Of a stretch of DNA of 64,000 bases, positions 1 through 49,075 are shown one piece after another (within the stretch, counting starts at the first letter, position 1; every line of letters starts with the position of its first letter). The stretch comes from an uncultured Gammaproteobacteria bacterium (lineage in GTDB: Bacteria > Patescibacteriota > Patescibacteriia > JAHIZJ01): assembly GCA_964371245.1 (NCBI GenBank), contig CAYJKP010000002.1, positions 102,960 to 166,959 on the forward strand. Reading direction: 5' to 3'. Under the pieces are notes generated by a model. It saw nothing but the letters and a program-made list of their open reading frames with translations, had not been told where the DNA came from and searched no databases. The translations under genes and the position numbers were made by a program.

Positions 1-25
1 GGTTCGACTCCCTCCTCCGGCACCA
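1..25 (+). tRNA. 3' end of a tRNA truncated by the window start (T-arm, acceptor 3' strand, CCA)
   Basis: Sequence ggttcgactcc-ctcc-tccggc-a-cca shows the GGTTCGAnTCC T-loop consensus followed by 16 nt, which is 5 (T-stem) + 7 (acceptor) + discriminator + CCA. The 5' part lies outside the window, so identity is unknown. Confidence 0.5.
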
Positions 26-62
26 GCTGGCCTGGACAAAAATACAGAAATATCTGGAATAT

Positions 63-8245: not shown

Positions 8246-9019
8246 TTAATTCAGCGTCGCCGTGTTTGTTTCGGTGAGATCGAGGTTTGCCGGATTTAGC
8301 TCTGGAATAAACTGGTCGAGAAGATCATAGAAATCTTGCTTGCTCAACGCACCCTCAATCCGATACCCATTAATAAACATTGTCGGCGTTCCCTGGACAT
8401 GAGCAGCCAATCCTTCTTGGTAATCTGTTTTTACCTGCTCGGCATATTTTTGGCCCTCAAGACAACCAGTAAACGTGGTGACGTTTAGTCCAGTTCCTTG
8501 GGCTAGGGTGATGAGACTCGCTTGATCATTCGCCTCCGGCTGCAACCAGTACCGATCGTGAAAAAGCCAAAACTTCCCTTGCTCGTGGGCGCATTTGCCC
8601 GCTTCCGCCAGTCGAACAGAGGTAGCGTCAGTTTGATCGACGAAATCCCGATAGATCAACCGTACACTCGTTCCGTATTCAGAGGCTATCTCGCGAACAA
8701 TTTGGCCGGTTGCCTGACACTCCGCGCAGGCAAAATCCGAGAACTCTACAATGACAACCAGGGGGTTTATTTCACCGATGGCCGGACGATCAGCTGCCTC
8801 AACCTCCCGGTGCCGATCGAGTGACAGTCGGTCCACCGCCGAAACTGTTTGCGATTGACGCGCGTCGGCTGGCGTTTTCGTATTAAATAAATGATTCGAC
8901 CAGAGGATGACGCCAAGACCGAGCAGGGACAATCCAATGACGAGCAACAACAACCCCCACCGACGGAATTGCCGTGATGAGGGTTTATTGATTTGACGTG
9001 TATTCGTTTGCTCGGCCAT
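8246..9019 (-). CDS. DsbA-family thiol:disulfide oxidoreductase, membrane-anchored
   Basis: 257 aa. N-terminal TM (WGLLLLVIGLSLLGLGVILW), then a thioredoxin fold with VVIVEFSDFACAECQ (E-F-x-D-F-x-CxxC). Confidence 0.7.
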   Translation of the reverse strand: MAEQTNTRQINKPSSRQFRRWGLLLLVIGLSLLGLGVILWSNHLFNTKTPADARQSQTVSAVDRLSLDRHREVEAADRPAIGEINPLVVIVEFSDFACAECQATGQIVREIASEYGTSVRLIYRDFVDQTDATSVRLAEAGKCAHEQGKFWLFHDRYWLQPEANDQASLITLAQGTGLNVTTFTGCLEGQKYAEQVKTDYQEGLAAHVQGTPTMFINGYRIEGALSKQDFYDLLDQFIPELNPANLDLTETNTATLN

Positions 9020-9069
9020 GCGAAACCTCCCTTTAACCGACTGTCTTCGCTCGGTTCTCGCGTCCGAGA

Positions 9070-9897
9070 TTACTTGCCAATGATCGCTTTTACCTGGGCT
9101 TCAAGCGACGCGTATGAAACTGCGCCACCGAGCTCGGTTCCGTTCAAGAAATTCCCCGGCGTACCCTGGACACCGTTGCTCGTTCCGACGGTCGTATCGT
9201 TTGTGACGACGCTGGCCGTTGTCTTATTGGTGATACAATCATTAAATTGTGTCGCGTTCAAGCCAAGATCCTTGGCAATCTGTTTGTACAGATCGGTGCC
9301 AAGCGTCGCCTGATTTTCATACAACTTGTCGCTATATTGCCAGAAAACGTCGTTGCCTTTTTGTTTGGCGGCACACTCGGCGGCAATGGCGGCCGGCGTC
9401 GCCTCAGGGTGAAAGCTCAGTGGAAAATTCTTGAACACCCAGCGGACATCATTCGGATATGCCTTCATCAGCTGTACCATCGTTTCATGAAACTTCTCGC
9501 AATACGGGCATTGGAAGTCCGACCATTCGAGAATCGTCACTTTGGCGTCTTTGTTGCCACGAACATGGTCCGTGTCGGCAATGGCATAGTCGGTGGTCAG
9601 TGGCGCGCTCGGTGCGGAATTTGTATTGGTGTTGGCATTTGCACCGGCGACTACCTTGTTGGCGTTGTTCGTGTTGCTATTTTTTGCGGCTGTTTCGGGG
9701 AAACCGCCTTTAAAATATACGCCCAGCATGATAAAAAATCCGATTGAAAACAAAAGCATCATTCCGCCGACTAAACCAAAGATAAAGCTGGCTTTGGCAG
9801 ATAAGTTGGCGAAAATGCCTTTTACGCCTGATGGGCCAGACGGATTTTCTGGTCGGTCTTGACCGTGATAACCTTCAGCATATTGCATAGTACGCAT
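9070..9897 (-). CDS. DsbA-family thiol:disulfide oxidoreductase, membrane-anchored (second copy)
   Basis: 275 aa. TM (FIFGLVGGMMLLFSIGFFIMLGVYF), then ILEWSDFQCPYCEKFH (CPYC active site). Confidence 0.7.
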   Translation of the reverse strand: MRTMQYAEGYHGQDRPENPSGPSGVKGIFANLSAKASFIFGLVGGMMLLFSIGFFIMLGVYFKGGFPETAAKNSNTNNANKVVAGANANTNTNSAPSAPLTTDYAIADTDHVRGNKDAKVTILEWSDFQCPYCEKFHETMVQLMKAYPNDVRWVFKNFPLSFHPEATPAAIAAECAAKQKGNDVFWQYSDKLYENQATLGTDLYKQIAKDLGLNATQFNDCITNKTTASVVTNDTTVGTSNGVQGTPGNFLNGTELGGAVSYASLEAQVKAIIGK

Positions 9898-10075
9898 TCT
9901 CCTTTAAATTAAGAGTTAAGCGGCGTAACTAATTGTTTATAGTACGTGAATTTTATTAACTTGTCAAATAGATTTTTCTCCACAGTCCGCCTGTTTGCCA
10001 AACCCTCAGCTCACTTTCAGCTTTCGTATAAAAAAATAACAAAAAATGAGCCCGCATTAACATTTTTTGTTTGAG

Positions 10076-10609
10076 TTACTTTTTACGATACTTACGTATG
10101 ACGATAACAATTGCCGCCGCGCCGAGTAACGGCCAGACGATCATGAAAATGGTAAGATACAGCGTGCTCTTTTTTTGCAGGCCATTACCCTCCTGTTCAG
10201 GGTGCGCCAGATACTCATAATATCGGTCAAGGACTTCCTGGGGTGAATCGCAACGCACGGCTTGGCACTGAATGATTGTGTTCTCAATCTCGCTTGTGAT
10301 GGCGGCGCTATACCCGACATATACGTTTTTTCCGGCAAAGACGGTCGGCGTCTGTCGACTCGGCATCTGATAGAGTGTCAGTAGATCTTCAAAAATTGCC
10401 CGGTTATCTGAATCTGTGCTCACGTCAAAGGTCGCTAAAATGATACCATATTTATTTTTGAAGCCGGACAGCGTATCGTCCATCGATTGGCAGCTCGGGC
10501 AACCGCTTTCATAGAAATAAAATACTTCCACCGTTTCTTTCGCCTGGGCGGGTCGAACTGAGAGTGCCGCCGCCACGACGATGAGACTGATGAGTAGGTA
10601 TTTCTTCAT
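10076..10609 (-). CDS. Exported thioredoxin-like CxxC protein with a C-terminal TM anchor
   Basis: 177 aa. Signal peptide MKKYLLISLIVVAAALSVRPAQA, CPSC motif (VFYFYESGCPSCQ), C-terminal TM LYLTIFMIVWPLLGAAAIVIVI followed by RKYRKK. Confidence 0.55.
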   Translation of the reverse strand: MKKYLLISLIVVAAALSVRPAQAKETVEVFYFYESGCPSCQSMDDTLSGFKNKYGIILATFDVSTDSDNRAIFEDLLTLYQMPSRQTPTVFAGKNVYVGYSAAITSEIENTIIQCQAVRCDSPQEVLDRYYEYLAHPEQEGNGLQKKSTLYLTIFMIVWPLLGAAAIVIVIRKYRKK

Positions 10610-10610
10610 C

Positions 10611-12290
10611 TTAAAAACGGACTACTTGTTTAGGTTGCAGTGGATGCGTCTGGTCGTTCCGGCGAGGCGGTTGCGTTGGCTGAGGCCTCGGTCGCTGGTT
10701 ATTGTTCGGCTTATTCTTGGGACGTTGGTTCGGTGCGGGTGGCGGACCGGGACGTTTCATTTGCTTAAACAATACCGGCTCTTGCTTGAGCGCCGTCTGC
10801 AAGCTGATCGCCTGTGGGACCGCCGGCCCGTCTTCGACAATTTGAACGCCCGTTTCTTCGTCAGCATCGTTGCTGGCCAGATTTATTCTCACCCGTTGAT
10901 GATCACCGTTTGGTCTCGGCTGGACGTCGTTCCGCGGTCGACTGTTGGCTGGGGTCGTCTCGTTCTGGTCTTCATCATCGTCGCCGTTCTCGGTCGGTTC
11001 AATGCCGGCCCAACGGGATATTTTTTCCTCAACCACTTGGCGGGCGGTTGAATACCGTTCCCGGGAAACCTTGATAATTTTTTCATGAGTCTCTTCTGCC
11101 TCGGCCGTATAGAGCGGTGGCAGCCCTCGGGCGGAAAACGGCTCCGAGGCAACGCCATCAATCATGAGCTTGAGATACATTTCAAACTTGGTCAGATTAA
11201 CAAGATCGTTTTGCATGAAAACAGGCTCGAACTCCTTTTCGAGAAACTCAGCGTCAGCGGCGCCCACCCGGAAACAGACTAAGGTACCGACGTTCCCGAA
11301 AACCGCCGCCTGAACCGTTTCATCAAGCTGCTCAATATATTGATGGGCAATAATCAGATCAAGCCGATATTTTCGGGCTTCGGACAGGATATTCGCAAAG
11401 CTTTCCGTGGCAAAATTCTGAAACTCATCGACGTACAGAAAGAAATCGCGGCGCTCTAATTCCGGCATATCGACCCGACTCATCGCGGCGAGCTGGAGTT
11501 TTGTGATCATCATCGCGCCAAGCAAGGCCGCATTATCCTCGCCAATCCGTCCTTTTGACAGATTCAGCAAGAGGATTTTCCCGCTGTCCATAATATCGCG
11601 CATGTCAATCGAGCTTTTTGTTTGACCGACAATATTTCGGATGATCGAGCTCGATAAAAATTGCCCGACTTTGTTCTGGATCGGAGAAATCGCCTCGGTC
11701 CGAAATTGATTGCTATAAGCGGCATATTCATCAAGCCAAAACGCCTTGAGGATCGGATCGGTTAGGCGGGTGACAACTTTTTTTCGGTATTTGTTATCGA
11801 CGAGCAGACGAGTGATGCCGAGCAGAGTTGAGCCGGGGTACTCAAGCAACGATAAAACCGTGTTACGGAGTACATACTCCAACCGCGGGCCCCAGGAGTC
11901 CGCCCAGATTTTTTTGAAAACGCCCACCAATCCCGAGGCCACGAGGTGTCGGTGAACGGGATTCACGGATTCCAGGACGTTAAAGGCGATCGGATAATCA
12001 ATATCAGCCGGATTGAAATAGATCACGTCGTTCGTTCGATTAGCCGGAATAAAATCAAGGAGTTTTTCGACCAGGTCGCCGTGCGGATCCACGACCGCGA
12101 GCCCGTGACCGGCCTGGATGTCGGAAACGATCATGTTCTCGAGCAGCGTCGTTTTTCCCATTCCGGTTTTTCCGATGACATACATGTGCCGGCGCCGATC
12201 ATCCAGTTTAATGCCAAAACGCCGTTTTTGATTACGGAAGTTTGTTTCTCCAAAAAGGGTAATATAGTTTTTTGGCTCGGGCATTGTCAT
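10611..12290 (-). CDS. TrwB/TraD/VirD4-like P-loop ATPase (type IV coupling-protein family) with no obvious TM segment and a Pro/Gln-rich C-terminal tail
   Basis: 559 aa. Walker A plus family motif HMYVIGKTGMGKTTLLENMI...LAVVDPHGDL (TrwB has ...GATGTGKS...IVDPNGD). Walker B FFLYVDEFQNF. LIIAHQYIEQL Q-motif. Low-complexity PPAPNQRPKNKPNNNQRPRPQPTQPP tail. Confidence 0.55.
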   Translation of the reverse strand: MTMPEPKNYITLFGETNFRNQKRRFGIKLDDRRRHMYVIGKTGMGKTTLLENMIVSDIQAGHGLAVVDPHGDLVEKLLDFIPANRTNDVIYFNPADIDYPIAFNVLESVNPVHRHLVASGLVGVFKKIWADSWGPRLEYVLRNTVLSLLEYPGSTLLGITRLLVDNKYRKKVVTRLTDPILKAFWLDEYAAYSNQFRTEAISPIQNKVGQFLSSSIIRNIVGQTKSSIDMRDIMDSGKILLLNLSKGRIGEDNAALLGAMMITKLQLAAMSRVDMPELERRDFFLYVDEFQNFATESFANILSEARKYRLDLIIAHQYIEQLDETVQAAVFGNVGTLVCFRVGAADAEFLEKEFEPVFMQNDLVNLTKFEMYLKLMIDGVASEPFSARGLPPLYTAEAEETHEKIIKVSRERYSTARQVVEEKISRWAGIEPTENGDDDEDQNETTPANSRPRNDVQPRPNGDHQRVRINLASNDADEETGVQIVEDGPAVPQAISLQTALKQEPVLFKQMKRPGPPPAPNQRPKNKPNNNQRPRPQPTQPPRRNDQTHPLQPKQVVRF

Positions 12291-13851: not shown

Positions 13852-15030
13852 TTACGACTGGACTGGTTCGGCTGGCGCTTTCTCAGCGAGACGGAAGTGT
13901 CCATCCGATGTTTTCGTAAACCGTTTCTGATCGGTTAGCGCTAAATGAATGGTATTTTTTTTCACCAGCCGCTGCTTCAGGACCGCTTCGACGATTTGTT
14001 CGCGGCTCAGCGGCTCTGACGACTTCTTTAATATTTCGACGATAACGTCAGCGACGACGCCCGGCTTGTACCCCCATTCTTTCAGGGCATAAATGCCACG
14101 GCCGACGAGGACATAGCGGTCATTCAATATCAATTCGTTGTGGATGGTCGGTGGGTAGGCTTTTCGGTTGTCAAAATGAATTTTATTAATCCGTTCGGCA
14201 ATCTTCGTAAAATGCATCGGCTTGCCTTCTTTTTTCAGAATCAAGTATATCTTATCGTTCATCCGCCGCGGTACGATCGTGCCCCATTCGCTTAAGCCGT
14301 AGTCGCCAAAGGGATTGCGACTAATTTTCTGGCTCATGGTGGCGTACCCGATGAGTGCCTGGTCGTTCGCCTCCGGCTCGCTTGGCCCGGCTGGGTGCTT
14401 CTGCCGGTAGGATTGGATCAATTCTTTTTCAGTCATCGGCTCGCCCTTGGCCGTAATGTTGGCGACCAGCCGGTCGATCACCTGACGCACCTGCTCAAGC
14501 GAACAGGTCGGAAGATACCAGGAAGCGCAAAAATAATCATTCTCTGGCTGGGCGATGAATTGCTTCGTCAACAGCCGAGAGAGGATGAACATCACCGACT
14601 GCCGGGCGATCGGCGTATCAGTCGAAAATTCAAAAAGTTGCTCGAGGAGTCGATCTTTTGAGATAGCCCCGCCGTCCCGTTCGATCACGGTTTTAATCGT
14701 TTGATCAATCGGCTCGATCAGTTCCCGAAAGTTCTTTAAACCGCGAATTTTTTTCACGGCTGTGCTTTCGATTTGCCGGATCCGTTCTCGAGTCAAGTTA
14801 TAGAATTGGCCGATTTCCTCCAACGTCTGCTTTGTTTTGCCATTCAACCCATACCGGCGTCGCAAGACGTCTTCTTCTTTGTTCGTGAGCAATTTCAAGA
14901 GCGCAGCCACTGCCTCGGGCGGGTTGAATTCGCGCATTTGTTCAGTCTGCTTGCTGAGAATTACTTTGTCGAGAATTGAATCTTCCATAAAAATGTATTT
15001 TTTTCCCAAATATTGAAGCAAAAACGGCAA
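13852..15030 (-). CDS. Protein with an N-terminal sigma70 region-4-like HTH and a long C-terminal domain (hypothetical regulator)
   Basis: 392 aa. LRRRYGLNGKTKQTLEEIGQFYNLTRERIRQIESTAVKKIRGL matches the sigma70 region 4.2 HTH consensus. The remaining 300 aa are unassigned. Confidence 0.45.
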   Translation of the reverse strand: MPFLLQYLGKKYIFMEDSILDKVILSKQTEQMREFNPPEAVAALLKLLTNKEEDVLRRRYGLNGKTKQTLEEIGQFYNLTRERIRQIESTAVKKIRGLKNFRELIEPIDQTIKTVIERDGGAISKDRLLEQLFEFSTDTPIARQSVMFILSRLLTKQFIAQPENDYFCASWYLPTCSLEQVRQVIDRLVANITAKGEPMTEKELIQSYRQKHPAGPSEPEANDQALIGYATMSQKISRNPFGDYGLSEWGTIVPRRMNDKIYLILKKEGKPMHFTKIAERINKIHFDNRKAYPPTIHNELILNDRYVLVGRGIYALKEWGYKPGVVADVIVEILKKSSEPLSREQIVEAVLKQRLVKKNTIHLALTDQKRFTKTSDGHFRLAEKAPAEPVQS

Positions 15031-15170: not shown

Positions 15171-16079
15171 CTATCTTGCTTGGCGCCGCGTTTTCAATTT
15201 TTGCCAAACCACCAGGAGCGGGCTGGCCACAAAGATCGATGAATACGTTCCGGCGATGATTCCGATGATCATGGCAAAGACAAACCACCGAATAGAGTCG
15301 CCGCCGAAAAAATAGAGGGCGGTAAGGACGAAGAGTGTGGTTAATGATGTGTTGAGTGAGCGAGCCAGAGTCTGGTTGATCGCTTGATTGATTGTTTCCT
15401 CAAAATTATTGGCCGCGCCACGCAACATATTTTCCCTGATTCGATCGAAGACGACGATCGTGTCATGGACGGAAAAGCCAAGGATCGTTAAGAGGGCGGT
15501 GATAAAGAGCGCGCCCACCTCAACCTGATAGACGTAGCCGAGAAAAGCGTAGACGCCGAGAATGACAATCATATCGTGCACCAAGGCGATCACGGCTGCC
15601 ACGCCCATAACCCAGCTCGGGATGATCGTCGTTTTTGATATTTTCCGAAAAGCGATGGTGATATAGATGATGATTCCAAGCATGACAAAAATTACGGCTT
15701 GGACGGCGCGGGACTGTAATTCCTTGCCGATCGTCGGTCCAACCGATTCAAAGCTTTCTTCTTGAACATTGCCATAGGCCTGGTTCAGTCCATCAAGGAG
15801 GGCGGCCCGTTTCTCATTATCGATTGTTTGGGATCGGATCGTTATTCCTTGATCTCCCGAGGGTTGGATGGACTCGGTTGGCAAACCTAGCTCTTTTAGT
15901 TTTGCTTGGAGATCCTGGGGACTCGGTCGATTGGCAGAAAAATTTAGCTGCCAGATCGTACCACCAGTGAAATCAATATTCGGTTTCAGGCCGCCAAGAG
16001 AAAGGAAAACGATACCAGGAACAAGAATGATGCCTGAGAGCACGAACCACCAATATTTTCTTTGGATAATTCGATACAT
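15171..16079 (-). CDS. secF: Protein translocase subunit SecF
   Basis: 302 aa with six TM helices and a SecD/SecF family C-terminal TM bundle. Adjacent to secD. Confidence 0.85.
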   Translation of the reverse strand: MYRIIQRKYWWFVLSGIILVPGIVFLSLGGLKPNIDFTGGTIWQLNFSANRPSPQDLQAKLKELGLPTESIQPSGDQGITIRSQTIDNEKRAALLDGLNQAYGNVQEESFESVGPTIGKELQSRAVQAVIFVMLGIIIYITIAFRKISKTTIIPSWVMGVAAVIALVHDMIVILGVYAFLGYVYQVEVGALFITALLTILGFSVHDTIVVFDRIRENMLRGAANNFEETINQAINQTLARSLNTSLTTLFVLTALYFFGGDSIRWFVFAMIIGIIAGTYSSIFVASPLLVVWQKLKTRRQAR

Positions 16080-17743
16080 TAGTGAAATATACCAAGTAAT
16101 CGTTTATGCTTAACCAGCCACTCGCCCGCCAACAGCCGTAACAGCGTGCGCGTAACCGTGATGGCCGTGAACATGCTGACGAGAATGCCGATCGCCAGTG
16201 TCAGAGCAAAACCTTTAATCAAGCTGGTTCCAAACCAGGTCAGAATCAAACAGGTGATCAAACTGGACGCGTTCGAATCGCGGATCGACAGCCAGGCGCG
16301 CCGGAAACCCTCTTCGATCGCGCTCGCCAACGGTTTTCCAAGGCGGATTTCTTCCTTTAAACGCTCGAAGATCAAGACATTCGCGTCAACCGCCATGCCA
16401 ATAGATAAGATGAATCCGGCCACACCAGCCAGGGTGAGCGTAACAGGCCAAAGTTTAAAAATCGCCAACGAAATAAGCGAATAGATTCCCAGAGCGATAA
16501 TCGCCAGCAAGCCCGGGAAGCGATAATAGACAATCATGAAAAAGGCGACTAACGCAATCCCGATCAAGCCGGCAAACAAGCTTTTTTGAACGGATAATTT
16601 TCCCAGCGAAGCGCCGATATTCTGTTGGTTGACTAGGCTAATCGGCACCGGCAGCGCGCCGGAGTTCAACCGTTGGGCCAGGGTTTTGGCCTCGTCGAGC
16701 GTGAAGGTACCGGTAATAACCGCTTCACCAGAATCGATTTCCGTTTCCACCCGCGGCGTGCTGATCGGCGAGCCGTCAAGATAAATGGCCACGATCTTGC
16801 CCACATTCCGCTTGGTAATTTCACCAAAGAGTTTCTTCCCTTCGTCGTTAAAAACCAGCGTCACTTGCGGCGCGCTCGTATTCGGATCAAATTGGACATC
16901 GGCCCGCTTGAGCTGTTTGCCGGTCAGTCCGGTATTCACAAACTCGGGCGTAGTCGAAGCCTCGGTTGACTCTTTCGTAAACAAAATGTGGCTGGCCTGG
17001 TCTTCAACTGTTTTTTGATCGCCCTCACCCGTTGTGCGCTCGTCGGTTTTCTTAATGATATGCCAACCGTAGCTGGTTTCGACCAGCTGCGGATAAGTTT
17101 CACCGACCTTCATATTATCAAAAACGACGTTTTCAAATTCGGCCACCATTGTCCCTTTAGCGAAATAACCAAGGTCGCCGCCAGTCTCGCTCGTGGAAGT
17201 ATCTTGGGAATACTGTTTCGCCAGCGCCGCAAAATCTGCATTTGGCGCCAAGGCCAATTGTAATACTTCCTCGGCTTTTTTCTTTTGTTCGGCATTTAAG
17301 GCCTCGATCGCCTTTTTTTGTTCGTCGGTCAGTGGTTCAGGCGCCTTCTCTTCGCGGAACTCGAGCAGCGGGGTTTCGCCGATCCGCTTGATCGCATCAT
17401 TGATATCAAAAACGCCGGCAATCTCCACAATCACCCGCCACTTGCCACCGACTTGGCTGGTTTGGATAACCGGCTCAGACACCCCAAACGCATTGATCCG
17501 GCGCTCAATCACGTCGCGCACTCCATCAACGGCGTTCTTCTGGTCGGCTTTTTGGAGCTGCGAAACATCCGCTTCGTAGACTAGCCGCGACCCGCCCTGG
17601 AGATCAAGGCCGAGCTGAACGTTGCCCCGAACCCAATTGCCGATTTTCAGATCCGGACTCTTCGGAAAATCAAAATAGCCGGCGGCTAAAGCCAGCGCGA
17701 GAATAATACCGAATGTCATCCAAACCTTCTTCCGTGGAGTCAT
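16079..17743 (-). CDS. secD: Protein translocase subunit SecD carrying an inserted parvulin-like (PpiC-type) PPIase domain
   Basis: 554 aa. SecD P1 motif GLDLQGGSRLVY and C-terminal TM core. The roughly 130-aa insert contains ADFAALAKQYSQDTSTSETGGDLGYFAKGTMVAEFENVVFDNMKVGETYPQLVETSYGWHIIKK, which matches the parvulin/PrsA signature. Confidence 0.85.
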   Translation of the reverse strand: MTPRKKVWMTFGIILALALAAGYFDFPKSPDLKIGNWVRGNVQLGLDLQGGSRLVYEADVSQLQKADQKNAVDGVRDVIERRINAFGVSEPVIQTSQVGGKWRVIVEIAGVFDINDAIKRIGETPLLEFREEKAPEPLTDEQKKAIEALNAEQKKKAEEVLQLALAPNADFAALAKQYSQDTSTSETGGDLGYFAKGTMVAEFENVVFDNMKVGETYPQLVETSYGWHIIKKTDERTTGEGDQKTVEDQASHILFTKESTEASTTPEFVNTGLTGKQLKRADVQFDPNTSAPQVTLVFNDEGKKLFGEITKRNVGKIVAIYLDGSPISTPRVETEIDSGEAVITGTFTLDEAKTLAQRLNSGALPVPISLVNQQNIGASLGKLSVQKSLFAGLIGIALVAFFMIVYYRFPGLLAIIALGIYSLISLAIFKLWPVTLTLAGVAGFILSIGMAVDANVLIFERLKEEIRLGKPLASAIEEGFRRAWLSIRDSNASSLITCLILTWFGTSLIKGFALTLAIGILVSMFTAITVTRTLLRLLAGEWLVKHKRLLGIFH

Positions 17744-17893
17744 ACTAAAGAATTATAGCATATAGAATATATTTCACAACCGGCCAATAATCTGGAGATT
17801 TTTACGTTTTCTTAACGATACCAGTAACCGCATCCACCCCGGCATGCGCCGGGGCAGGCTTCCACCCATTCCAAAGTTTTGTTTCCTTAATAA

Positions 17894-20419: not shown

Positions 20420-21799
20420 TTACTGCACCAACATCAGCCGATTCTTCTCTTTCTTCACTGGCACCCACTTGAAGCTGCCAGTCACCGAGTCGATATAGGC
20501 AACTTTCAAATATTTACGGCCGAGGAGATTAGCCAGTTTCGTCCCAATCCGGGCTGAATCCGACTCGAGCATTTGGAGGCGCTGTTTTAACAGGTATTGG
20601 AGCCAGAGGCTGTAAAATACCGGGTCGGTCGGCTGGGCGTCGAACTGAGTCAATGATTCTGGTCCGTATTTCTCTTTCAAATAATCCCGAAACACACTGT
20701 CGGTTTTCATAACCATAGCTAAATCCTGAGTTTTCGCCAAAACGTGCAAGAACGCTATCACTCGGTTTCGGTTATTGCCTCGAATTGCCTCTTCAAATTC
20801 CGGCCGGATGTTCAGCTGTTCCCGGCCGACTCGTTTCAGAATATTTTTTTCCTCCTCGTAGATCGCCTTTTGCTCATCCGGGTTTTGGGAGTAGATTTTC
20901 AGGAGATTCTCGACACCAAGGTGGCTTGGCTTGGCGTTTGTTTGCTCCGCCGCTGGCCGAGCACCGACGGTAGCCGGAGCGGCGCCGGCCTTGCTTCGGT
21001 TGTAATCAGCGTCGTATTTTTCGACTATGTCATACCATTTTTCCATTCGTTTCTGCTCTTCCCGCTCTTTTTCGCTGTATTTTTCTAATACGCCGCCGCG
21101 AATCGTGCCCGTTGCAGCCGGATCATCGACCGGCACGGCGGATTCAAAACCGGCCGGCGAATCAGACGGCGTCTTCAGATACTCGAGGAACTCAAAGAAA
21201 GACCGCAAGCGCTCGCGCGACTCTTTGCCTAGCGCTTTCGTGTTTTGGCTGTTAACGAGATATTCCGACAGGCGGATTGACGTAATCTGTTGGGTACCTA
21301 GCGCAATCACCTCGTCAAGCGCCCAATTTTTTACCGTTCCAGCCTGCTCTTTGCCGTCTTTGGTGACTGATTCATGCGTTAAGACCTCAGTATTGTTCCG
21401 GATGGCCTCGAGAATTTCTTTTCTCAGCGCATTTCTGTCCTCGAGACGGACGAACGTAACCAGCTTGTGCTTCAATTTCTCGATTAAATTAAAGTCGGGG
21501 ATCTGCCACGTTAAGATATAGTGGTCCTGAAACAAGGGGATAATGACCGGTTCGCGGTACCAGGGCAAGGCGATCCAACGCAGCTTCCACTGCAGGGTTT
21601 CGTACTCCTTATAGACGGCGGCGTCACTGGTCGGCAGCTCCGGACGCGCGGCCAGGTTGCGGGCGATTACCTCGGCCAATTCAAACGCCTGCTCGCCCAT
21701 GTCATATTTCGCGCAAACGCTAAAAGAATCCTGAAACCTGGCTAGTGTCTCGGGGCTTTCAAATGCTTTGGCTTGGTTGTTTGGTGTTGCGTCGACCAT
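20420..21799 (-). CDS. Hypothetical cytoplasmic protein (459 aa), last gene of the giant-protein operon
   Basis: No recognisable motifs. Has a charged Glu/Lys-rich central segment. Co-oriented and tightly spaced with the upstream genes. Confidence 0.4.
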   Translation of the reverse strand: MVDATPNNQAKAFESPETLARFQDSFSVCAKYDMGEQAFELAEVIARNLAARPELPTSDAAVYKEYETLQWKLRWIALPWYREPVIIPLFQDHYILTWQIPDFNLIEKLKHKLVTFVRLEDRNALRKEILEAIRNNTEVLTHESVTKDGKEQAGTVKNWALDEVIALGTQQITSIRLSEYLVNSQNTKALGKESRERLRSFFEFLEYLKTPSDSPAGFESAVPVDDPAATGTIRGGVLEKYSEKEREEQKRMEKWYDIVEKYDADYNRSKAGAAPATVGARPAAEQTNAKPSHLGVENLLKIYSQNPDEQKAIYEEEKNILKRVGREQLNIRPEFEEAIRGNNRNRVIAFLHVLAKTQDLAMVMKTDSVFRDYLKEKYGPESLTQFDAQPTDPVFYSLWLQYLLKQRLQMLESDSARIGTKLANLLGRKYLKVAYIDSVTGSFKWVPVKKEKNRLMLVQ

Positions 21800-21804: not shown

Positions 21805-24594
21805 TTATAAGACTACTGGTGGCTCATGCGCCGTGGCCGGTGCCTCTTGGTGCGTCTCGCTATAGCCCGTTACTACCCGGTCAACATTATCCAGTTTCAT
21901 GCCTTCCTTACCTGCGAAATCACGCAACTTACTTAAAAACACATCATAATTTTCCATAACGAAATCCTTGTAGTGCGCTTGGAATTCAGCTGGTGTTTCG
22001 GCGTCAATATTCGATTTTTTTATCGCATCCCGATTGGCTTCAAAATATCGCGTCACCACATCGATATTATTCTGTTCTACACCCGCCTGCACGTCAACCA
22101 TTTCGCGTATCGGTCCGGTAAGTAGCCCTTGGTTATATTCGTTCGTTAAATGACGGGCATTGCTGACATTAAACCGCTCTTTGCCGATCGAGCTGGCAAT
22201 CGCCGGCCATTTTTCCGCGATCATCTTCGCGCCATACCCGGTCAGCTTGCCGTATCGTTCGCTCTCTGGATTGGTTGGATCTTTCAGGTATTCATCCATG
22301 AAACCAAGCCTGTTGAATCGCCGCAGCGCGGTTTCAAAGTCCTGTTTACCCATCTCCGTGTCCACGCGCAGATTTTGAAGTTTGCGCGAACGCTGATGAA
22401 GCGTTCCATCGGAAGTCGTACCGATCGCTTGTCCGACGTTCCAATGCCCCGTCTGCTCAGCTACGTTGCTGACATCGTTTTCGAGGGCATAGGCCACCTG
22501 CTGATTCATTTTTAGCTTCTTGATAAAGGCTTCGCGGATGAACGCGTGCATACCCTGCAGGCCGGAGGGCAGCTGCTCGCCCGCTTTGATGATCGCCTGT
22601 CCGCCATGCTCAAACTCTTCCTTTATCTTATCGGCCGACATGCCCTTTGTAAAATCATCAAACTCCGTTTTGCTCATCAGGCCCTTTTCCCGATGTTCAT
22701 AATAATCCTCGGTCGGCTTATAGGAATAATTTACGACTTCGTTCTCATGGCCAACGCGCGCCGCTTGCAGCAAGATCGCGCGCGCCGCCGCCATATCGCC
22801 CCGGGCAATGGCGCCCTTCATCAGGGAGATCAGCTCTTCCTCGCTGGAGGTATTGTATTTCTTGCTTTCTTCCGCGTCCTGGGCGCGCCGCAGCTGCTGG
22901 GCCATAAAATCGCGCGGCTTGTACGCTTCGTATTTCGCGACCACTTCCTTTAACGAGGCGACTGCCCTTGCTTCCTGGTCGCGCAGGGCCGTTAATTGTT
23001 TGTATTCTTCGCCGCCTATTTCTTTCGTCGCGCGAGCTCGGGCGACTTCCTCGGACAAGTCTTTATCATTGGCCATTAACTCTCCCGTTCGAGCATCAAT
23101 CTCGTCCTTATGCGCCTCCTCGTAACTCGTCATTCTGGATTTCGCCACGTTCAGTTTTTCTTCGCCCTCGGTCAGCCTACGCTCTGCCCTGCCTTGCGGT
23201 ATCCGGCGGCCCCAAGTTTTAAAACCATGATTATAGAACAGGCCTTGCATGTAGGTTTCAACCAACGACGGCGCGCCAGCACCGGAAATCGGCGCGAGAA
23301 AACCGCCTTTGCGTAATCGTTCTTCGGCAAATATTTTCCCTTCCCGTTCTTCTTTCGCCCGCTTTAAGACCATACCTTCTTTTATGTTCCGATAGACATT
23401 GACCGGATTGAACTCAAGGCCTTTCCCGACGCGGCCAGGCAGAGCGCCAGATTTAATTTTACGTGCTCCCCAGGCATACGCGGTTCCCGGAGCTCGAGCC
23501 AGCCACGCACCCGTGGCCGCCGCCATTCCACCGGCGACTTTTGACCCTAGTCCGCTTCCGAGCGTGCGCGTCTGCTGGGCGGCCATGACCGCAGCGTACA
23601 GTAGGCCGATAGTCACAAAATAACTCATGAGATTGTCCGAGGTCGACATTTCCGAGATCCCCGCGGCTAAACCGGTTGATTGCTGTCCTGCTTCGACAAA
23701 CGCTCGCGTGCCCTCCGGTATGCCCTGGGTAATCTCTCGACCGACATTGCCCGGATTTGTCGCCATAACCGCCATTGCGAGCCATAGATAAAAAGCAATA
23801 ATGGGTCCGACGGTCACGTAATTTCCAAACGTACTCCACCACTGGGTGGCCGCCTTCTTCAACGGACTGATCATTTCCCCAAGATAGGCCAGGGGCGATA
23901 GCACCACCAGGATCCAAAGCACGATGATTCGGCCGAGTAAAATAAAGATGATCATCAGCACGGCGCCGATCATAAACAGTAACAGAAAGATACCGAGAGC
24001 GACGGCAGCGAATGCCTCACCGACGCTGGCGATCGCGCCCGTATCAGTTTCCTGGGCAAACATGAGCACCTTCTGCAAACCACTGGAAGTTGTTAAATTC
24101 GCGGCGGCCGCATCGGCGAAACGCGAGGTAAATGTATTCATGATGACCTGGCACAGATCGATGAAAAAGCCGGCGATGGTCTTCGAAAAGTTCAGCAAGA
24201 ACGCCATAATGATAAACTTCGGCAGGGTGCGCTTATAATGATAACTTTCGATCCGGAGCACCGTGCCCCAAGAAATGGCCAGCAGGATCAAAACAAGAAA
24301 GACGTTGCACATATCGCGTACCACCACCCAGCCCTTCTGTACAGCCGTCGTGTCAACAAAGTTATTAAACTGAACAAACGCCAGCATGATGTTGATCAGG
24401 ACAACGAGCAGTTTCCCGAGCAGCGAGAGAATCATAAAGAACGGATAGGTCACCCACATCAGGATCCGATCGGTTATGCCCATCGCGGCGTGAATCGGCG
24501 TCCAGGTCACGAGAATACCAGCCAATACGAAAATACAGACGATCAGAATCGTGAGGCGCTGGGTTTTTCTTGTGGGTTGAAAGTTGATTTTCAT
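21805..24594 (-). CDS. Large polytopic membrane protein with a C-terminal cytoplasmic coiled-coil domain (hypothetical; VirB6/TrbL-like topology)
   Basis: 929 aa. At least seven hydrophobic helices in the N-terminal 350 aa, then a long charged alpha-helical region (EAHKDEIDARTGELMANDKDLSEEVARARATKEI...). Confidence 0.45.
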   Translation of the reverse strand: MKINFQPTRKTQRLTILIVCIFVLAGILVTWTPIHAAMGITDRILMWVTYPFFMILSLLGKLLVVLINIMLAFVQFNNFVDTTAVQKGWVVVRDMCNVFLVLILLAISWGTVLRIESYHYKRTLPKFIIMAFLLNFSKTIAGFFIDLCQVIMNTFTSRFADAAAANLTTSSGLQKVLMFAQETDTGAIASVGEAFAAVALGIFLLLFMIGAVLMIIFILLGRIIVLWILVVLSPLAYLGEMISPLKKAATQWWSTFGNYVTVGPIIAFYLWLAMAVMATNPGNVGREITQGIPEGTRAFVEAGQQSTGLAAGISEMSTSDNLMSYFVTIGLLYAAVMAAQQTRTLGSGLGSKVAGGMAAATGAWLARAPGTAYAWGARKIKSGALPGRVGKGLEFNPVNVYRNIKEGMVLKRAKEEREGKIFAEERLRKGGFLAPISGAGAPSLVETYMQGLFYNHGFKTWGRRIPQGRAERRLTEGEEKLNVAKSRMTSYEEAHKDEIDARTGELMANDKDLSEEVARARATKEIGGEEYKQLTALRDQEARAVASLKEVVAKYEAYKPRDFMAQQLRRAQDAEESKKYNTSSEEELISLMKGAIARGDMAAARAILLQAARVGHENEVVNYSYKPTEDYYEHREKGLMSKTEFDDFTKGMSADKIKEEFEHGGQAIIKAGEQLPSGLQGMHAFIREAFIKKLKMNQQVAYALENDVSNVAEQTGHWNVGQAIGTTSDGTLHQRSRKLQNLRVDTEMGKQDFETALRRFNRLGFMDEYLKDPTNPESERYGKLTGYGAKMIAEKWPAIASSIGKERFNVSNARHLTNEYNQGLLTGPIREMVDVQAGVEQNNIDVVTRYFEANRDAIKKSNIDAETPAEFQAHYKDFVMENYDVFLSKLRDFAGKEGMKLDNVDRVVTGYSETHQEAPATAHEPPVVL

Positions 24595-24620: not shown

Positions 24621-27600
24621 TTATTGCGTGATTACGACACTGCCGTCAAAAAGGCTATTGCAATACGCACCCGCACCTTGACACTGCCCCTGATTTTGAC
24701 AGATATTCAGCGGGGTCGTGCCACCGCGACAGGCGCCCACGCAGGTACCACCGCCACAGTTCAGATCGCTCGAGCAATCAGTGCCGTCGTTGTCGCAATA
24801 CCCGCTGCCCTTGTCCCAGTTATCTTCGACAAAGACACGGACAAAGCAGGTATCGGGACCGCCGCCGGCTGCTCCGCAATCCCCATAGGTATAGTCATGT
24901 GTCAAGGTATGATACGGCCCATTCGGGTCTGACCGCGGCGGGATACCGGGATTCTTTGGAAATGATTCCCAGTGGTTATTGCCCCAGTCAACAACAAACT
25001 TCTTGATCGGCATTTGCTCGGGGTCGACCATGGAATTGAAGGTGACCGTGGCCGTCCCTGATCCATTCTTGATTTGCACCGGCCCGGTCCGGCCGTTAAT
25101 CTTAATATTGAACACTGTTGGTTGCGCCCAGCAAAAATCAAACGGAAAACCGGTGATGTCATTCGGTCGATTATCCGACATGCCGTTTGAACCGTTGTGC
25201 ACTTTGCATTGATCCATTGCCTCAAATGCATCCGAGTAGGCGGCCTTGAATGAATTCAGGCTGAGGTCCGGCTCATACTTGGCCTCGGTCGGGTCTGGCG
25301 CTGAATCAGGCAAACCATTGCAGTATTGTAGTTGTTTGCTTTGGCCATGCTGCGCTTGGATATGGCCGAGCGTGCAATTATCACCCGATCGGATACCGCC
25401 CTCGCACTCCCAGTCAGCGCATTCGGCAACAACTCCGGGTGCGCACGCGCCCGGCACCTCACAACAATCCGCCGCATCCTGGCCGACCCGGCACGGATTA
25501 CCCAGTAACTCGCCGCCCGTGCAAATACCATTGTATTGGATACATGACCCGCCGGAAATACCCGTGCAATTTGAGTCAGAGGCGCAGGCTTGGCCGCACC
25601 AATAGCCACAACCGGGTGGATTACCGTTTTCATTCCAACCGCAGATCGCCTCGGCGCAAGAACCTTCAGGGCAATCCCCCTGTCCTGAGCACGGTCGTCC
25701 AGCGTTAGTGCCACCGACGCAGACTTTATCGACACAGGAACTTCCAACTTCGCATGAACCGCTACCGCACGGTAAGCCGCTCGTGCTGCATCGTTCCTTC
25801 TCTTCGCAAACCCCACCGTTACATACGCCGGCGTCACAACGGGCGTTATTTAAGCGGCAGATATCAGCGTTTCCGAGACAGGCGGCACCGCCGGGACATG
25901 GATTGGTCGGCTGATTATTTGAGGCACATAGCGTCGTGGCTTGATTGGAGCAGACACCGTCGGCGCAGAAGCCGCTTCGACAATCGCATTGGCCAACTGC
26001 ATCATAGGTGCACTTTGAATTGGCATTACAGGAATAACCGGCTGGACAGGCATTAGCCGGCTGACAGGTCTGTGTGTGGTCGCCCGAGCAGCGTGGCCGA
26101 TTCCAACATACTTGGGCTGGGTTCGCGTACAGGCAGAATATTCCGGCATTACAATTAGAATCATCAATGCACTGCGTCCCAGGATAATCGCCCCAGCCGT
26201 CGACATTATTATCGCAATATTTCGAACAATTCTGGCCACCGTTGCATTCCTCCCCCGTATCACGGCATATTGAAATGTTGACGCAGCTTCCTTCGTTCGG
26301 ACAGTCGCAGGCTGCCGGCACATTCGAGACACATTTCTTCAGTGCGCCCTGGGTCAGACATGTGGACCCAGTCGGACAATTGTTGGCAATATTACACTGG
26401 TCGCTACCCGCGTCCGTTCCCCCGACGCACCGTTGGGCGACACAGGCATTACCGCCGCCCGGGCAGGCGCCGAGGCCGCACGGGATGGTTGGATCATTAC
26501 TGCAGCGCTGGCTCAGCTCGCAGACCTCGCCAGCCGCGCAGCCGCACGGCGTCATCGGACTTGGGTTGTCGGGGTCAATGCTAATACAGAGCTGACCCGA
26601 ACACACGCCATTGCCGATATTACACTCGTCATTGTTTTCACACCCAGTTCCTCTGAAGGGGTATTGCGGGTCATTGGCTTTGAAGCAGCCCATCGTCGTG
26701 ATGTCGACGCATTTGCCGTCAGACCATACCCAGACGCCATAGACATCAGCAAAGATCCGCTGGATGCGACGCAGCCCTAAGCCCCCGCCCGTGGCCGTGT
26801 AATTTGTCGGCGGCTGGTTGGGTGGTGGCGGTTCGCCTGGGGTTAATGGGCCGCTGAATTGTTCCGTCGTTGTATAGCGATTTGGGAAGACGTCATCACA
26901 AATGGTTATTTCCGATCGGTCATAACGGAAGCCAGTCCACCAGCCCCAGCTATACAACCGTTTATTGGCTTTATGCTTGCATGAATATGGAACGCCAGCG
27001 CGCGGATAGCTAAGATAATCCACCTCATCAAAGCCGTGTTCAACGCCCCGGTACGGCGACCAGCCCCAGTCCTGAGCGAAGGGCGAGAATGAACCGCCGC
27101 CTGTTTGCTGCTGCGGATCCCACCATAGGTAGATGATTGGTTGGTATTTTGAGCCCAGGTCTTTCGTCATTTCATACGGATTGCCCCAGACTGACGTGTA
27201 GTCTGTGTCCCAGGTCGCCGGATCGCCCGGCACGTTGGTCACGTTATTCCCAGCGTGTCCAACTGAACCAGGATAGGTCAAACTGCCGTATGGATTCGCA
27301 TCATCGTCAAAGGTAACGCCAAGATCCCAGATCTGGGAATAATTCCCCTTGATCCGTTCGGCCCAAGCTTTGTTCGCGCCGCTCGGATCGACTGTCTGGC
27401 CGATCACGTCGCAACGGAACGCGAGCACCTCGCCGATGTTTCCCGGCCAGGCTTCGCCGAGATGATTATGGCTCAGCCAACCGTCAAATGGTTGCCAGAC
27501 ACCCGGTGCGATTGGGTTGAGGCCGTTTTGGTGGTTCGAATCCCACCAGTTATACTGGAGGTTTTCACCGCCGCCGCCGCTGTGCGACCAGTATTCACAG

Positions 27601-30600
27601 ACATCGGAATCCGGTATTTCGTTCGGCACACACACGTATAAACATTTGTCTTGATGGCCGCCGCCGCGGACGGCTTTTTCGCAGAGCTTGCGATGATAGC
27701 CAAGCTCTTCACAGGAATAGTGGCTGGCGTAATTGCAATTGCCGTTGGAAAGACCATATGGTCGTCGGAATTCATAGAATGACCCTTGGAGACAGTAGTA
27801 GAGCGGCGCGTCGCCAAAATAACCGACCAGCTGATCCGTATCATCGGCCTCGCCGGAAATGATATCAACCGGCCACCACTGCAAACAAACGCTGCGATTT
27901 TGCGGGTCGGTTTCGAGACAGTAGCCTTTCCAGCCGCGATAAATCTTCCGGGCCGTACCGGTGGTCTTGGTATAGTCGCATGTTAACGAATTCGATTCCG
28001 GATAGAGTCGACAGGATCTGACCACAAACCGCGGATCGTTCGGAAGCTCGGGCGGCATCTGCGTGGATTTCTTTTCCAGCAAGGTCTGGAACATCACGTC
28101 ATCAACCTGGAATTTTTGCAGCCCGGCGTTCCCGCCCGCGTCCACAATACTGAGATAGGTATTTTTAAATACGCCACTGACGACCATCGCATTACCAAGC
28201 GGCAAGGTAAAGATCTGCCAATTCATCGTGGCCGTAACCGTGCCAAAAACCTGACATGGCCCCGCATCATCGTTATAACAAAGCTGAACTTTTATCTTAG
28301 AATCTTGATCAGCCCGCAATTTCAGGCTTATAACCAACGGCTGGTTATCAAATATGAGCGAATCGAGATTAATCTTCGCTCCCGAATCGGCTCCGGTCAA
28401 ACCGCCTACCTCCATCACCCAATTCTGTTTTGTCGGATCAAGCGGGTCTTCGACAGCCTTCAGGGCATTCGGCGGGTTGATGTTCCGCGGCTCCCACGGT
28501 GAGGAGTTTTTAAACTGAAAGTCGTAATTCGGTAAATTCATACCGATGCCGATTTCTTGCATCGATCCGGTTGGGTAATACCCATGGATGACTTGGCAGA
28601 CGTTGCTCTCGCCGACACACTGATCGCAATAGGTCGGATTATTGAGATCGCAAGCCGTGTTATTTGGGCATACGCCGCCGGGGCAATCGTCTGGTTTTTG
28701 GCAGAGCAGTCCGTCCTTGTCGCCGCCCTGACAGATGCCATCGCGCCAGCAGACCGTGTTCGGATCTTCGCTGCATCGCCAATTATAGCCGACCCGCGCA
28801 TAGCCTGAATAATTTACGGAGTTGTCAACTTCCGTTTTGTGATCAAACGTCAAGTCAGTCGGGTGGTTCGGAGGTGTCACTAGTCGATTCATGTACTCGA
28901 CGGTCGGGGTGGCATTTTCAAATTTCGGCGTTCGAATGCAATGTGAAGTCAAACCGCAATCGGCATCGATGAGACAAGGTCGCGAGGGATCGTTTTCACA
29001 TTGCCCTTCGCCGACCGGCTTGATACATTGGCCGGACGTGCCTAGCTGACGGCAATTTCCAATATCATAACAGGTCAATTCCTTCGAACCATCGCTTTTC
29101 TCCACTTCGTAGCTCGTCTTGCAATACAACCACTGATTACAGACCCGATCACGATCAACTTTATAGACGCTGTTGGAATCGGCCGTGCAACCGCCGCCAG
29201 TGCACGTTTCGGGCGTTCCTCGGTTTGTATCCAGTTTCGCGTATGTCAAATCGCTATCATAGGTGAGACCCTGTGAATTAGTGGTGTCGTTGAATAGAAT
29301 GCAGCCCTCGTCTTTATTAACCACCCCGGCACAACTCGCCGAATCGATAGTGCTATCAATATAGTAGTAGGGCTGGCAGCCAGACAGATAATCAGGCGGG
29401 AGAGCGCCGTTCTGGTAGGGCCGGCACTGTTGATCCGTCCGGTAAAACTCGCCTTGGTCGTTATATTCAGCCCGACAATTCGCGTTGCAGCCTTGGAAAA
29501 CACAGGTGCTTTGAGGACAGTCGGCGTTGATTTTACAATTCTGTCCCCCGCTCGGGCCAGCTAAACAGACGCCATCTGGCGTTACTTTATCCGGTGACGG
29601 CGTTTGGGGATCGCGGTACTCACTGCAACCGCTGGCTCCATTTTGACATTTACCAACCCAATACTCGGTACATTTCTGACCTTCCGGACACTGACCGTCG
29701 TCTTGGCATATTCTTTCCGCGCAGTAGCCGTCGTTCGAACTGTTCGCGTCGGCGCAGCCATATGCGGCATCGTTTGGATCGGCGTCAGAATCGCAGGCTT
29801 GCCCGGCGCGTATTCCGCCATAGCAGACTTCCGTCAAGTCGGAGCATAAACCGTCGTTATTGCCACCCGCCTGATCACAGCCATAGAGTGGATCCTTCGG
29901 ATCAACTTGCGAATTACATTTTTCTCCGGCCCGATAGCCACCGCGGCACGTTTCTTGCAGCCGTGGTCCGCAGACCTTCGTCGGCATTGGCGATTCTGGA
30001 TATTGCTCGCAAAGGCCGCCGTCACATGACGCGAGATCGCCCGGCCCGAAACACGCCACGCCCGGATTGTTTCCGCCAATACAGGAGTATTTTTGGACGG
30101 GGCAAAATTTATCCGTCCCACTCTTCAGCCAAGCATCATAGACCTCGCCTTGATATTTGAGACTCTTTCGAAAATCGCAGACTTGGGCGTTTGGCTGCTT
30201 AAACTGCGTAAAACTTCCGGAATCTGCGCCAATCTGGAATTGATCACAGAATGTTTCTTCTTTCGTACAGAGTGTTTGGTCGTATTCGTCGGGATTATTG
30301 ATGAGATAGGTTGTCTTAAACTTCGTTACCCGGCCTTCCACGTCAAAGCTCGGCAAACCGAGGCCTTCGCAGCCTTTCGCTTTGGCTTGGCATTTGTACT
30401 TCGCCGCGTTGACGATCGGCCGGACATTGTCCGCCTCTACTCTTACGCCTTTGTCTGCCGGCTCATAAGGAAAGGCGGTGGTCGAGTTGTTCGTTTCGAT
30501 GGCGGCGGTACAACCGACTTTCTCAGGTCGGCAGAGATTCGTGAAACTCTGGATATATTGATCGTTTCCTTCACTGTCCGTATAGAGCGAGCAACCAACC

Positions 30601-42896: not shown

Positions 42897-43073
42897 GATC
42901 ACAATACAATTAATTAATCGACGGCTCGTCTTCAAAAGCATATCATTTTTTTGGGGTTTTGCCACGTGAAAATCCATCATACGACTATACCTTGACAGTA
43001 CCGGCATCGCATGATAACCTACTAAATATCAAAACGAAGTGATGCAATAACGTAGCTAATATTAGCCAATTAA

Positions 43074-48244: not shown

Positions 48245-48351
48245 ATTTATTGTCTAAATTATTGGTTATGTTAGAATACAAAAGCAGTAATCTGCACCAA
48301 AGACTTCTTGTTTAGCGATGGGGAGTCTTTTGGTATATTGTTTCGCTTTCT

Positions 48352-48756: not shown

Positions 48757-48768
48757 AAATTATAAAAG

Positions 48769-48933
48769 TTAATTGTTAGTCTTGTTTAATAATTTATAAA
48801 TATTTTTTTCACTAATTCTCCAATGCCCAATCTTAGAAGCTTTTATTTTACCAGATTTAATATAACGAAAAATCGTTCGTTCACTTACTCTTAATATAGC
48901 GGCTACTTCTTTGATCGTTAGTAGTCTGTCCAT
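48769..48933 (-). CDS. Excisionase/Xis-like HTH DNA-binding protein (54 aa)
   Basis: Hand translation: MDRLLTIKEVAAILRVSERTIFRYIKSGKIKASKIGHWRISEKNIYKLLNKTNN. Typical excisionase-family HTH. Sits next to the recombinase gene. Confidence 0.55.
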   Translation of the reverse strand: MDRLLTIKEVAAILRVSERTIFRYIKSGKIKASKIGHWRISEKNIYKLLNKTNN

Positions 48934-49075
48934 ATAAACATAGTGTAAAACGATATATTTCTATTGTCAAGTATTGTCATGCTTTGTCATTCTATTGACT
49001 TGTTGGGCTTACGGGCGTATGTTTGGGTTGCAAGAGTTCCTTGATTAAACGCTAATTGTCTAATTAATCCTGTAT

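Follow-up and report, generated by a model that had tools for sequence, protein, structure and literature searches.

The stretch of DNA analysed here (the window; 64,000 nucleotides from contig CAYJKP010000002.1) contains two adjacent minus-strand genes coding for SecD and SecF, the two subunits of the protein export motor that acts at the SecYEG channel (Table 1). Within the periplasmic P1 domain of the SecD protein lies an insert which, judged by its sequence and predicted fold, is a parvulin-type peptidyl-prolyl isomerase (PPIase) domain, with the order of its secondary structure elements circularly permuted. An original prediction, made from the letters and the open reading frames (ORFs) of the window, had proposed a parvulin at this point, between the N-terminal segment of P1 and the P1 head. 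The ORF coordinates that it named proved exact, and the position of the domain is borne out by profile matches, by the modelled fold and by comparison with SecD proteins that have no insert.

Profile and structure matches outside the insert assign the protein to the RND-related SecDF family, as the SecD of a Patescibacteria export motor. The TIGR01129 secD model aligns over its whole length (positions 1-397 of 397) with 386.1 bits against a cut-off of 244.4, and the Pfam families SecD_1st (residues 73-133), SecDF_P1_head (271-366, profile positions 19-114 of 114) and SecD_SecF_C (370-538) all exceed their cut-offs. The SecDF of Thermus thermophilus flanks the insert and never spans it (query 41-134 matching its residues 32-120, and query 272-541 its residues 159-428; phmmer E 5e-76), and the best Foldseek matches of the SecD model are the SecDF structures 5XAN, 5YHF and 3AQP (E 1e-22 to 1e-24). 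The layout is that of SecD, with an N-terminal transmembrane (TM) helix, a large periplasmic P1 and a five-helix TM bundle; the model has helices at 3-23, 381-431, 438-467, 472-504 and 507-538, in agreement with hydropathy. The RKK motif ahead of the first helix, read with the positive-inside rule and the known topology of SecD, would place P1 and the parvulin outside the cytoplasm. The secD and secF genes are separate and translationally coupled, the TAA of the former and the ATG of the latter overlapping as TAATG (16077-16081), and in 71 of 80 related loci the ORF next after secD is of SecF type. SecD D453, invariant in 78 relatives, aligns with D340 of the T. thermophilus SecDF, and SecF D206 and R240 align with its D637 and R671, all three of which are reportedly conserved charged residues of the proton pathway. 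The proton-pathway residues are intact in these alignments, and the motor looks functional. A TATAAT box lies about 9 nucleotides 5' of the secD ATG (17744-17790), so near that the leader would be very short or absent.

The boundaries of the insert emerge from Patescibacteria SecDs that lack it, which came from representatives retrieved with query residues 60-300. In these proteins the LLEF(R/K)E strand is joined to an (F/W)xxTxL(T/S)G strand by 3-25 residues; the shortest joins are of three residues, GEG (P0338) and GKD (P0372), and others comprise about 20 low-complexity residues. As so few residues can join the two strands there, residues 135-267 can all be assigned to the insert, which would be borne on the tip of a β-hairpin. 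The expected length of about 130 residues stood, and the limits of nt 16960-17347 first proposed were approximate, those found here being nt 16943-17341. The Pfam model boundaries suggest that the hairpin bearing the insert connects the P1 base with the head, which might put the domain at the hinge between them. The same loop carries degenerate parvulins in some relatives (P0283, P0359) and unrelated low-complexity inserts of 67-84 residues in others (P0289, P0321, P0389). By comparison with the insert-free proteins, the parvulin is foreign to SecD. The linker by which the chain leaves it is modelled with low confidence (predicted local distance difference test, pLDDT, of 68 in the full model and 56 in the domain model).

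The identity of the insert as a parvulin is clear from profile matches far beyond chance. Rotamase_3 (PF13616) matches residues 150-235 with 84.5 bits (E 1e-23, cut-off 22.5) and Rotamase (PF00639) residues 143-234 with 76 bits (E 4.7e-21, cut-off 21.7), the outcome that the original prediction had anticipated for these families, and the parvulin motif which it quoted, ADFAALAKQYSQDTSTSETGGDLGYFAKGTMVAEFENVVFDNMKVGETYPQLVETSYGWHIIKK, is present. Comparison of the insert with a profile of canonical parvulins by hhalign gives a probability of 100% (E 6.5e-43). An AlphaFold2 (AF2) model of the domain alone has the four-stranded antiparallel sheet and four helices of the parvulin fold (pLDDT 93.6, predicted template modelling score, pTM, 0.85) and aligns with PDB 8HM3 across 119 residues; structure prediction thus recovers the expected fold, and leaves its placement relative to the P1 head unfixed (pTM of the full-length model 0.51). 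The insert opens with a long helix, residues 140-164 in the full model and 8-33 of the domain model according to DSSP, which is predicted to combine the canonical α1 with an N-terminal extension of about 10 extra turns of residues that forms a stalk. The segment containing VLQLA aligns with the α1 consensus 'kaeevlkk' of the parvulin hidden Markov model (HMM). The VLQLAL motif is accordingly the C-terminal part of helix α1, and the earlier suggestion that it replaces the strand with the HIL motif does not hold. The NCBIfam PrsA models match the parvulin part alone, at 61-66 bits where their cut-offs are 343-361, and the Pfam search of the window SecD detected neither SurA_N nor a chaperone domain flanking the rotamase. 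The protein is therefore not a PrsA, though it may work like one. A homologue search with the insert alone recovered short free parvulins, which served as the set of canonical references, and no SecD fusions.

The insert is, by profile comparison and model, a circular permutant of the parvulin fold, a variant rather than a canonical member. The canonical order is β1(His)-α1-α2-α3-β2-α4-β3-β4(His), and free parvulins begin with EIRASHILV (β1, with the first catalytic histidine) and end with WHLIKKTDER (β4, with the second). In the insert α1 comes first and the chain runs on to WHIIKKTDER, the loop TTGEGDQK and then VEDQASHILF, so that the strand corresponding to β1 (hereafter β1') stands after β4. 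The permutation, which the original prediction had suggested as possible and which would agree with its ASHILF after the domain, was judged by profile-profile tests against null distributions in place of a single-sequence Pfam test, which gave a weak gain of +4.3 bits over controls. In native order the insert profile aligns to positions 14-93 of the 93-column canonical profile with a score of 229.7; with columns 245-258 placed before 151-236 it aligns over 91 columns (template 3-93 of 93) with 256.5. Sixty column shuffles of the strand gave 225.5 +/- 2.1 (maximum 233.4), putting the un-permuted score at a z of about 15, and 21 other SecD 14-mers set in its place gave 221.5 +/- 1.1; the gain of the un-permuted over the native order was put at +31 score units. 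The canonical HMM maps residues 247-262 to its positions 4-19, at 1.1 bits not significant alone. In both models residues 245-256 form a strand in a hairpin with β4 (226-238; pLDDT about 96 in the domain model), the exact pairing being putative. A native SecD origin of ASHILF was considered and rejected, there being no such strand in insert-free SecDs.

The active site looks intact and appears to behave as one unit across the family. Alignment to Pin1 and Par14 identifies D181, H252, H228 and T223 as the equivalents of the catalytic tetrad, which is C113/H59/H157/T152 in Pin1 and D74/H42/H123/T118 in Par14, and L191, M199 and F203 as those of the hydrophobic proline pocket, L122, M130 and F134 in Pin1. 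Among 68 diverse relatives with one parvulin domain, D181 is kept in 61, T or S at 223 in 66, H228 in 63, and L191 and F203 in 56 each, and the full tetrad is present in 160 of 188 one-domain relatives (85%). Residues H252, I253 and L254 of the relocated strand are 96-97% conserved in the family. H228 is lost in five of the 188 proteins and H252 is lost in all five, none keeping H252 without H228, a pattern that fits a single catalytic site whose first histidine comes from the relocated strand. This co-loss joins the profile test and the modelled strand in supporting the permutation. The further suggestion that the domain is inactive as an isomerase is not favoured, as most one-domain relatives conserve both the tetrad and the proline pocket, which argues for activity at the level of sequence.

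The SecD-parvulin architecture is, on the genomes sampled, widespread in one bacterial group, the Patescibacteria. Rotamase and SecD Pfam domains occur together in 120 of the 120 best full-length homologues (60-100% identity), which are named just 'SecD' by their sources (NCBI, JGI, ENA and Logan) and lie in some cases on contigs of more than 1 Mb. A scan of GTDB species genomes confirmed the fusion in at least 348 relatives, those that are named being all Patescibacteria. The best 80 of these at least 348 are all from Patescibacteria lineages (Buchanan-, Kerfeld-, Falkow-, Komeili-, Kuenen-, Moranii-, Magasanik- and Uhrbacteria, and other Parcubacteria-type lineages), in a scan that relied on lineage-specific motifs, which independent fusions in other phyla could escape. 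Many loci of this kind (L003, L008, L010, L013, L014 and others) are third-party annotation (TPA) metagenome records titled 'uncultured Gammaproteobacteria bacterium', whose Patescibacteria-type SecD-parvulin shares 47-54% identity with that of the window; the label on such records is probably a placeholder or an error.

Of these best 80 loci, 50 resemble the window in having one parvulin unit and 28 have two; in one more the insert is unrecognisable, and the last is partial. In the two-unit forms (loci L050-L080; P0245, P0256, P0258, P0274, P0279, P0282, P0260, P0264) the first core is degenerate, with a histidine at the H228 position in 0 of 40. The second core is intact and follows a canonical EVKASHILI strand (histidine in 39/40, T or S in 40/40, F203 in 38/40), and a further strand leads into the P1 head, with a histidine in 10/40 and still reading SHIF in P0245. 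Such an order suggests that these forms may be nested, with domain 2 inside the β4/β1' hairpin of a permuted domain 1. Versions fused into a single SecDF chain of 877-1075 residues were also found. In a crude neighbour-joining tree of the SecD parts the one- and two-unit forms are interleaved, with 16 Fitch parsimony changes over 109 tips, which hints at repeated gain and loss, the tree giving no direction. The segment from β4 through the linker to β1' is collinear with the P1-P2 junction of E. coli SurA, where it aligns against SYGWHIIKKTDERTTGEGDQKTVEDQASHILFT, and the loop TTGEGDQK corresponds to the SurA interdomain linker. Because of this match and of the two-domain sister forms, the most likely origin of the permutation is a tandem array of parvulins that was captured or trimmed out of register, or else a duplication with a later deletion. 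Free tandem parvulins of three to five units without SecD are also known (P0292, P0298, P0305, P0310, P0317 and others); those that are named are annotated as PrsA or peptidylprolyl isomerase and belong to Eremiobacterota, and a role for free multi-parvulin proteins as donors of the insert is unsupported.

Table 1. Features of the secD-secF locus and of the parvulin insert. Coordinates are positions in the window; Tth, T. thermophilus SecDF.
Feature	SecD residues	Coordinates	Strand	Basis or remark
secD ORF, 554 amino acids, with embedded parvulin		16079..17743	-	ORF list; TIGR01129; Pfam
N-terminal TM helix, KVWMTFGIILALALAAGYF, preceded by RKK	6-24	17672..17728	-	hydropathy window 6-26; model helix 3-23
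P1 base, N-terminal part; last strand LLEFRE (127-132)	41-134	17342..17623	-	SecD_1st; Tth 32-120; model strand
Whole insert: linker, helical stalk, permuted parvulin, exit linker	135-267	16943..17341	-	
Long helix, stalk and canonical α1 in one; contains VLQLA	140-164	17252..17326	-	DSSP; parvulin HMM
Parvulin core, α1 to β4	151-236	17036..17293	-	holds D181, L191, M199, F203, T223, H228
Tetrad codon	D181	17201-17203	-	
Tetrad codon	T223	17075-17077	-	
Tetrad codon	H228	17060-17062	-	
Tetrad codon	H252	16988-16990	-	
Hairpin loop TTGEGDQK, β4 to relocated β1	237-244	17012..17035	-	variable, gappy; non-strand in both models
Relocated strand β1', TVEDQASHILFT, with predicted catalytic H252	245-256	16976..17011	-	conservation; model; HMM
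Flexible exit linker KESTEASTTPE	257-267	16943..16975	-	coil; poorly conserved
P1 head and return to base; first strand FVNTGLTG	268-376	16616..16942	-	SecDF_P1_head; Tth 159-260
SecD TM core with proton-pathway D453	377-545	16109..16615	-	SecD_SecF_C; D453 = Tth D340
secF, 302 amino acids		15171..16079	-	TIGR00966, 295.5 bits, cut-off 160

Taken together, these observations make it probable that the protein is a SecD with a complete parvulin PPIase on the tip of its P1 base-head hairpin, serving as a foldase at the SecYEG exit, its most likely function being that of a translocon-tethered foldase of the PrsA/PpiD kind. In the established model of SecDF (Tsukazaki 2011, summarised in PMC6028853), P1 binds the chain as it leaves SecYEG and draws on the proton gradient to move it off the pore. 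The parvulin, active or at least substrate-binding, would be held at the channel exit by the helical stalk at one end and the flexible linker at the other. The tethered domain might meet the same unfolded chain that is captured, on its emergence, by the P1 head swinging under the proton-motive force; by isomerising Xaa-Pro bonds and/or holding the chain, it would favour onward movement and an early start of folding. The functional coupling of foldase to motor that the original prediction put forward would be of this kind, and SecD would hard-wire a partnership that is non-covalent in PrsA of Gram-positives, PpiD/YfgM of E. coli and the Mdp444 dome of Mycoplasma. A bolder version would have the parvulin as a moving part of the motor, swinging on its stalk with the proton-driven P1 head, with chain capture, prolyl isomerisation and release timed to each power stroke; a separate PrsA/PpiD-type factor would be unnecessary in this Patescibacteria clade, and the insert would be the first natural circularly permuted parvulin, its two-domain sisters preserving the duplication intermediate. 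This bolder version as a whole is a tentative and rather doubtful proposition.

Several points weigh against the foldase reading. Its functional part is inferential throughout, and the low full-length pTM means that the model does not fix how the parvulin is oriented towards the P1 head and SecYEG. The position of β1' in the sheet and the distance between H228 and H252 rest on DSSP, pLDDT and sequence logic; the co-loss of the two histidines has a Fisher p of about 1e-6 in a statistic that ignores phylogeny; and position 199 (M130 of Pin1) is F, M or L in the family, with no conserved methionine. The parvulin domain of PpiD and the P1 parvulin of SurA are catalytically inactive despite their fold. 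Degenerate parvulin units also persist at the SecD loop itself, both as core 1 of the two-domain forms and in P0283 and P0359, so that a role without catalysis is clearly viable there. No second parvulin was found in the 64-kb window or in about 0.48 Mb of related loci; PrsA annotations have been reported in genomes of the candidate phyla radiation (PMC9166423), so that the fusion need not replace PrsA.

The main alternative, to which these degenerate units lend weight, is that the embedded parvulin is a non-catalytic chaperone or substrate clamp, adding a hydrophobic binding surface to the P1 head in the manner of the inactive parvulins of PpiD and SurA P1, with isomerisation irrelevant. This seems unlikely for the one-domain class, where the full D/T/H/H tetrad of 160 of the 188 proteins and the joint loss of the two histidines are what purifying selection on catalysis would give; moreover, one unit of the two-domain forms always keeps a full site.

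If ASHILF instead lay outside the parvulin fold, as the relic of a lost second parvulin or as a SecD linker strand, the domain would be an incomplete and inactive remnant. At the collinear SurA P1-P2 junction the strand is indeed part of the next domain, the two-domain relatives show exactly that arrangement, and the strand alone is not significant against the parvulin HMM. However, insert-free SecDs have no such strand, and the window protein has no second core to own it; H252-I253-L254 is nearly invariant and lost only along with H228; AF2 confidently pairs the strand with β4; and un-permutation restores full-length coverage at a score far outside the null. We therefore regard this alternative as highly improbable.

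Hardly any weight can be given to a role of the insert mainly in regulating or anchoring the motor, whether by gating the swing of the P1 head or by binding the cell wall or a host surface rather than substrates. The insert does lie at the base/head junction between a rigid helical stalk and a flexible linker, the same loop tolerates the unrelated 67-84-residue inserts, and such bacteria are episymbionts with elaborate surfaces; yet conservation of the parvulin tetrad and proline pocket would be needless in a regulatory plug, and neither a binding partner nor an additional motif was found. An artefact, through chimeric assembly or a mis-called ORF fusing a PrsA-like gene to secD, comes to mind solely because the sequence is metagenome-derived and can be set aside, since SecD sequence stands on both sides of the insert in one uninterrupted frame and the architecture recurs across independent assemblies (120/120 close homologues and 79/80 independent species-level loci).

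The remainder of the window offers some further observations. Directly downstream of secF, the ORF at 13852-15030 (-) combines Sigma70 region 4 (residues 45-96) with HARE-HTH, an unusual sigma-like architecture. Further downstream (8246-12290, -) lie genes of type-IV-secretion-like and extracytoplasmic disulfide-folding character, near the SecD that bears the foldase, namely a VirD4/TrwB-like coupling ATPase (10611-12290), a TraF-like thioredoxin (10076-10609) and two DsbA-like thioredoxins (9070-9897 and 8246-9019). A leucyl-tRNA synthetase ORF (39423-43007, -) codes for 1194 residues, far above the usual length, and has NUDIX (632-746, E 1e-11) and Ham1p_like (286-360, E 4e-7) matches among its class-I synthetase, editing and anticodon-binding domains, possibly another insertion of an enzyme domain into an enzyme. 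A block of low GC content at about 46000-54000 (0.35-0.43, against about 0.51 elsewhere) contains a large serine recombinase (46556-48244, -) and an SNase-domain protein (51251-52255, -) and is probably an integrated mobile element. The giant ORF at 24621-34676 (-), of 3351 residues, has a weak CBM_4_9 match alone, and the neighbouring ORFs of 929 (21805-24594) and 459 residues (20420-21799) have no Pfam match. Two tRNA-Met (CAT) genes (1974-2049 and 2140-2216, +), about 90 nucleotides apart, are possibly an initiator/elongator or tRNA-Ile2 pair.

SecD and the parvulins are both well known, and public protein databases plainly show the fused architecture; in a search of full-text literature with few subscription journals among it, neither a fusion of SecD with a parvulin nor a parvulin with circular permutation was found described. 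How the Sec channel hands its substrates over to folding factors is an active question, pursued with PpiD/YfgM, SurA and the Mycoplasma dome. A natural and widespread protein that joins a foldase to SecD in one chain is 'Rosetta-stone' evidence for a substrate and a place shared by SecDF and the parvulin foldases. It also offers a minimal single-polypeptide system for such coupling, in which one-domain, two-domain, degenerate and insert-free versions occur naturally. The permuted order, together with tandem intermediates in sister lineages, provides a clean case for circular permutation during domain insertion. Because these proteins are annotated as 'SecD' alone, their PPIase escapes genome-based surveys of extracytoplasmic folding capacity in Patescibacteria.

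Among characterized systems, the SecDFs of T. thermophilus and Deinococcus radiodurans (3AQP, 5YHF, 5XAN) resemble the window SecD outside the insert in their N-terminal TM helix, P1 base and head and six-TM core, and share the aspartate of the proton pathway, with the SecF residues likewise matched. They differ in being single SecDF proteins, whereas SecD and SecF are separate genes in the window, and characterized SecDFs have no enzymatic domain in P1, the T. thermophilus protein having about 38 residues (121-158) where the window SecD has its 133-residue parvulin module. PrsA (B. subtilis 4WO7/1ZK6, B. anthracis 6VJ6/6XD8) is a separate, dimerising lipoprotein with a canonical parvulin set within an N/C chaperone domain; the window protein has no such chaperone domain, is anchored by SecD itself and has a permuted strand order. 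In E. coli, parvulin-containing chaperones are found at the periplasmic Sec face, namely PpiD/YfgM at SecYEG (PMC9643414) and SurA, which docks at the holo-translocon (PMC9987972). These associations are non-covalent and transient, unlike the covalently attached, apparently catalytic single parvulin predicted here, and SurA has two canonical parvulins and a chaperone core where the insert has one parvulin. In Mycoplasma pneumoniae the PrsA-like PPIase of Mdp444/Mpn444 forms a dome over the translocon exit and contacts SecDF (bioRxiv 10.1101/2024.09.05.611430, 10.1101/2025.04.25.650208). The dome shares with the window SecD the idea of coupled translocation and folding, in a genome-reduced host that is wall-less or monoderm, but is a large trimeric lipoprotein assembly of separate polypeptides, in contrast to a single-chain insertion of about 130 residues. 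The closest counterparts are the two-domain SecD-parvulins of other Patescibacteria, which share the loop, the flanking SecD motifs and the clade; their insert of about 240 residues consists of a degenerate core 1, a canonical β1 with an intact core 2 and an extra strand, whereas that of the window protein has one core, which is intact, and after it the histidine-bearing strand.

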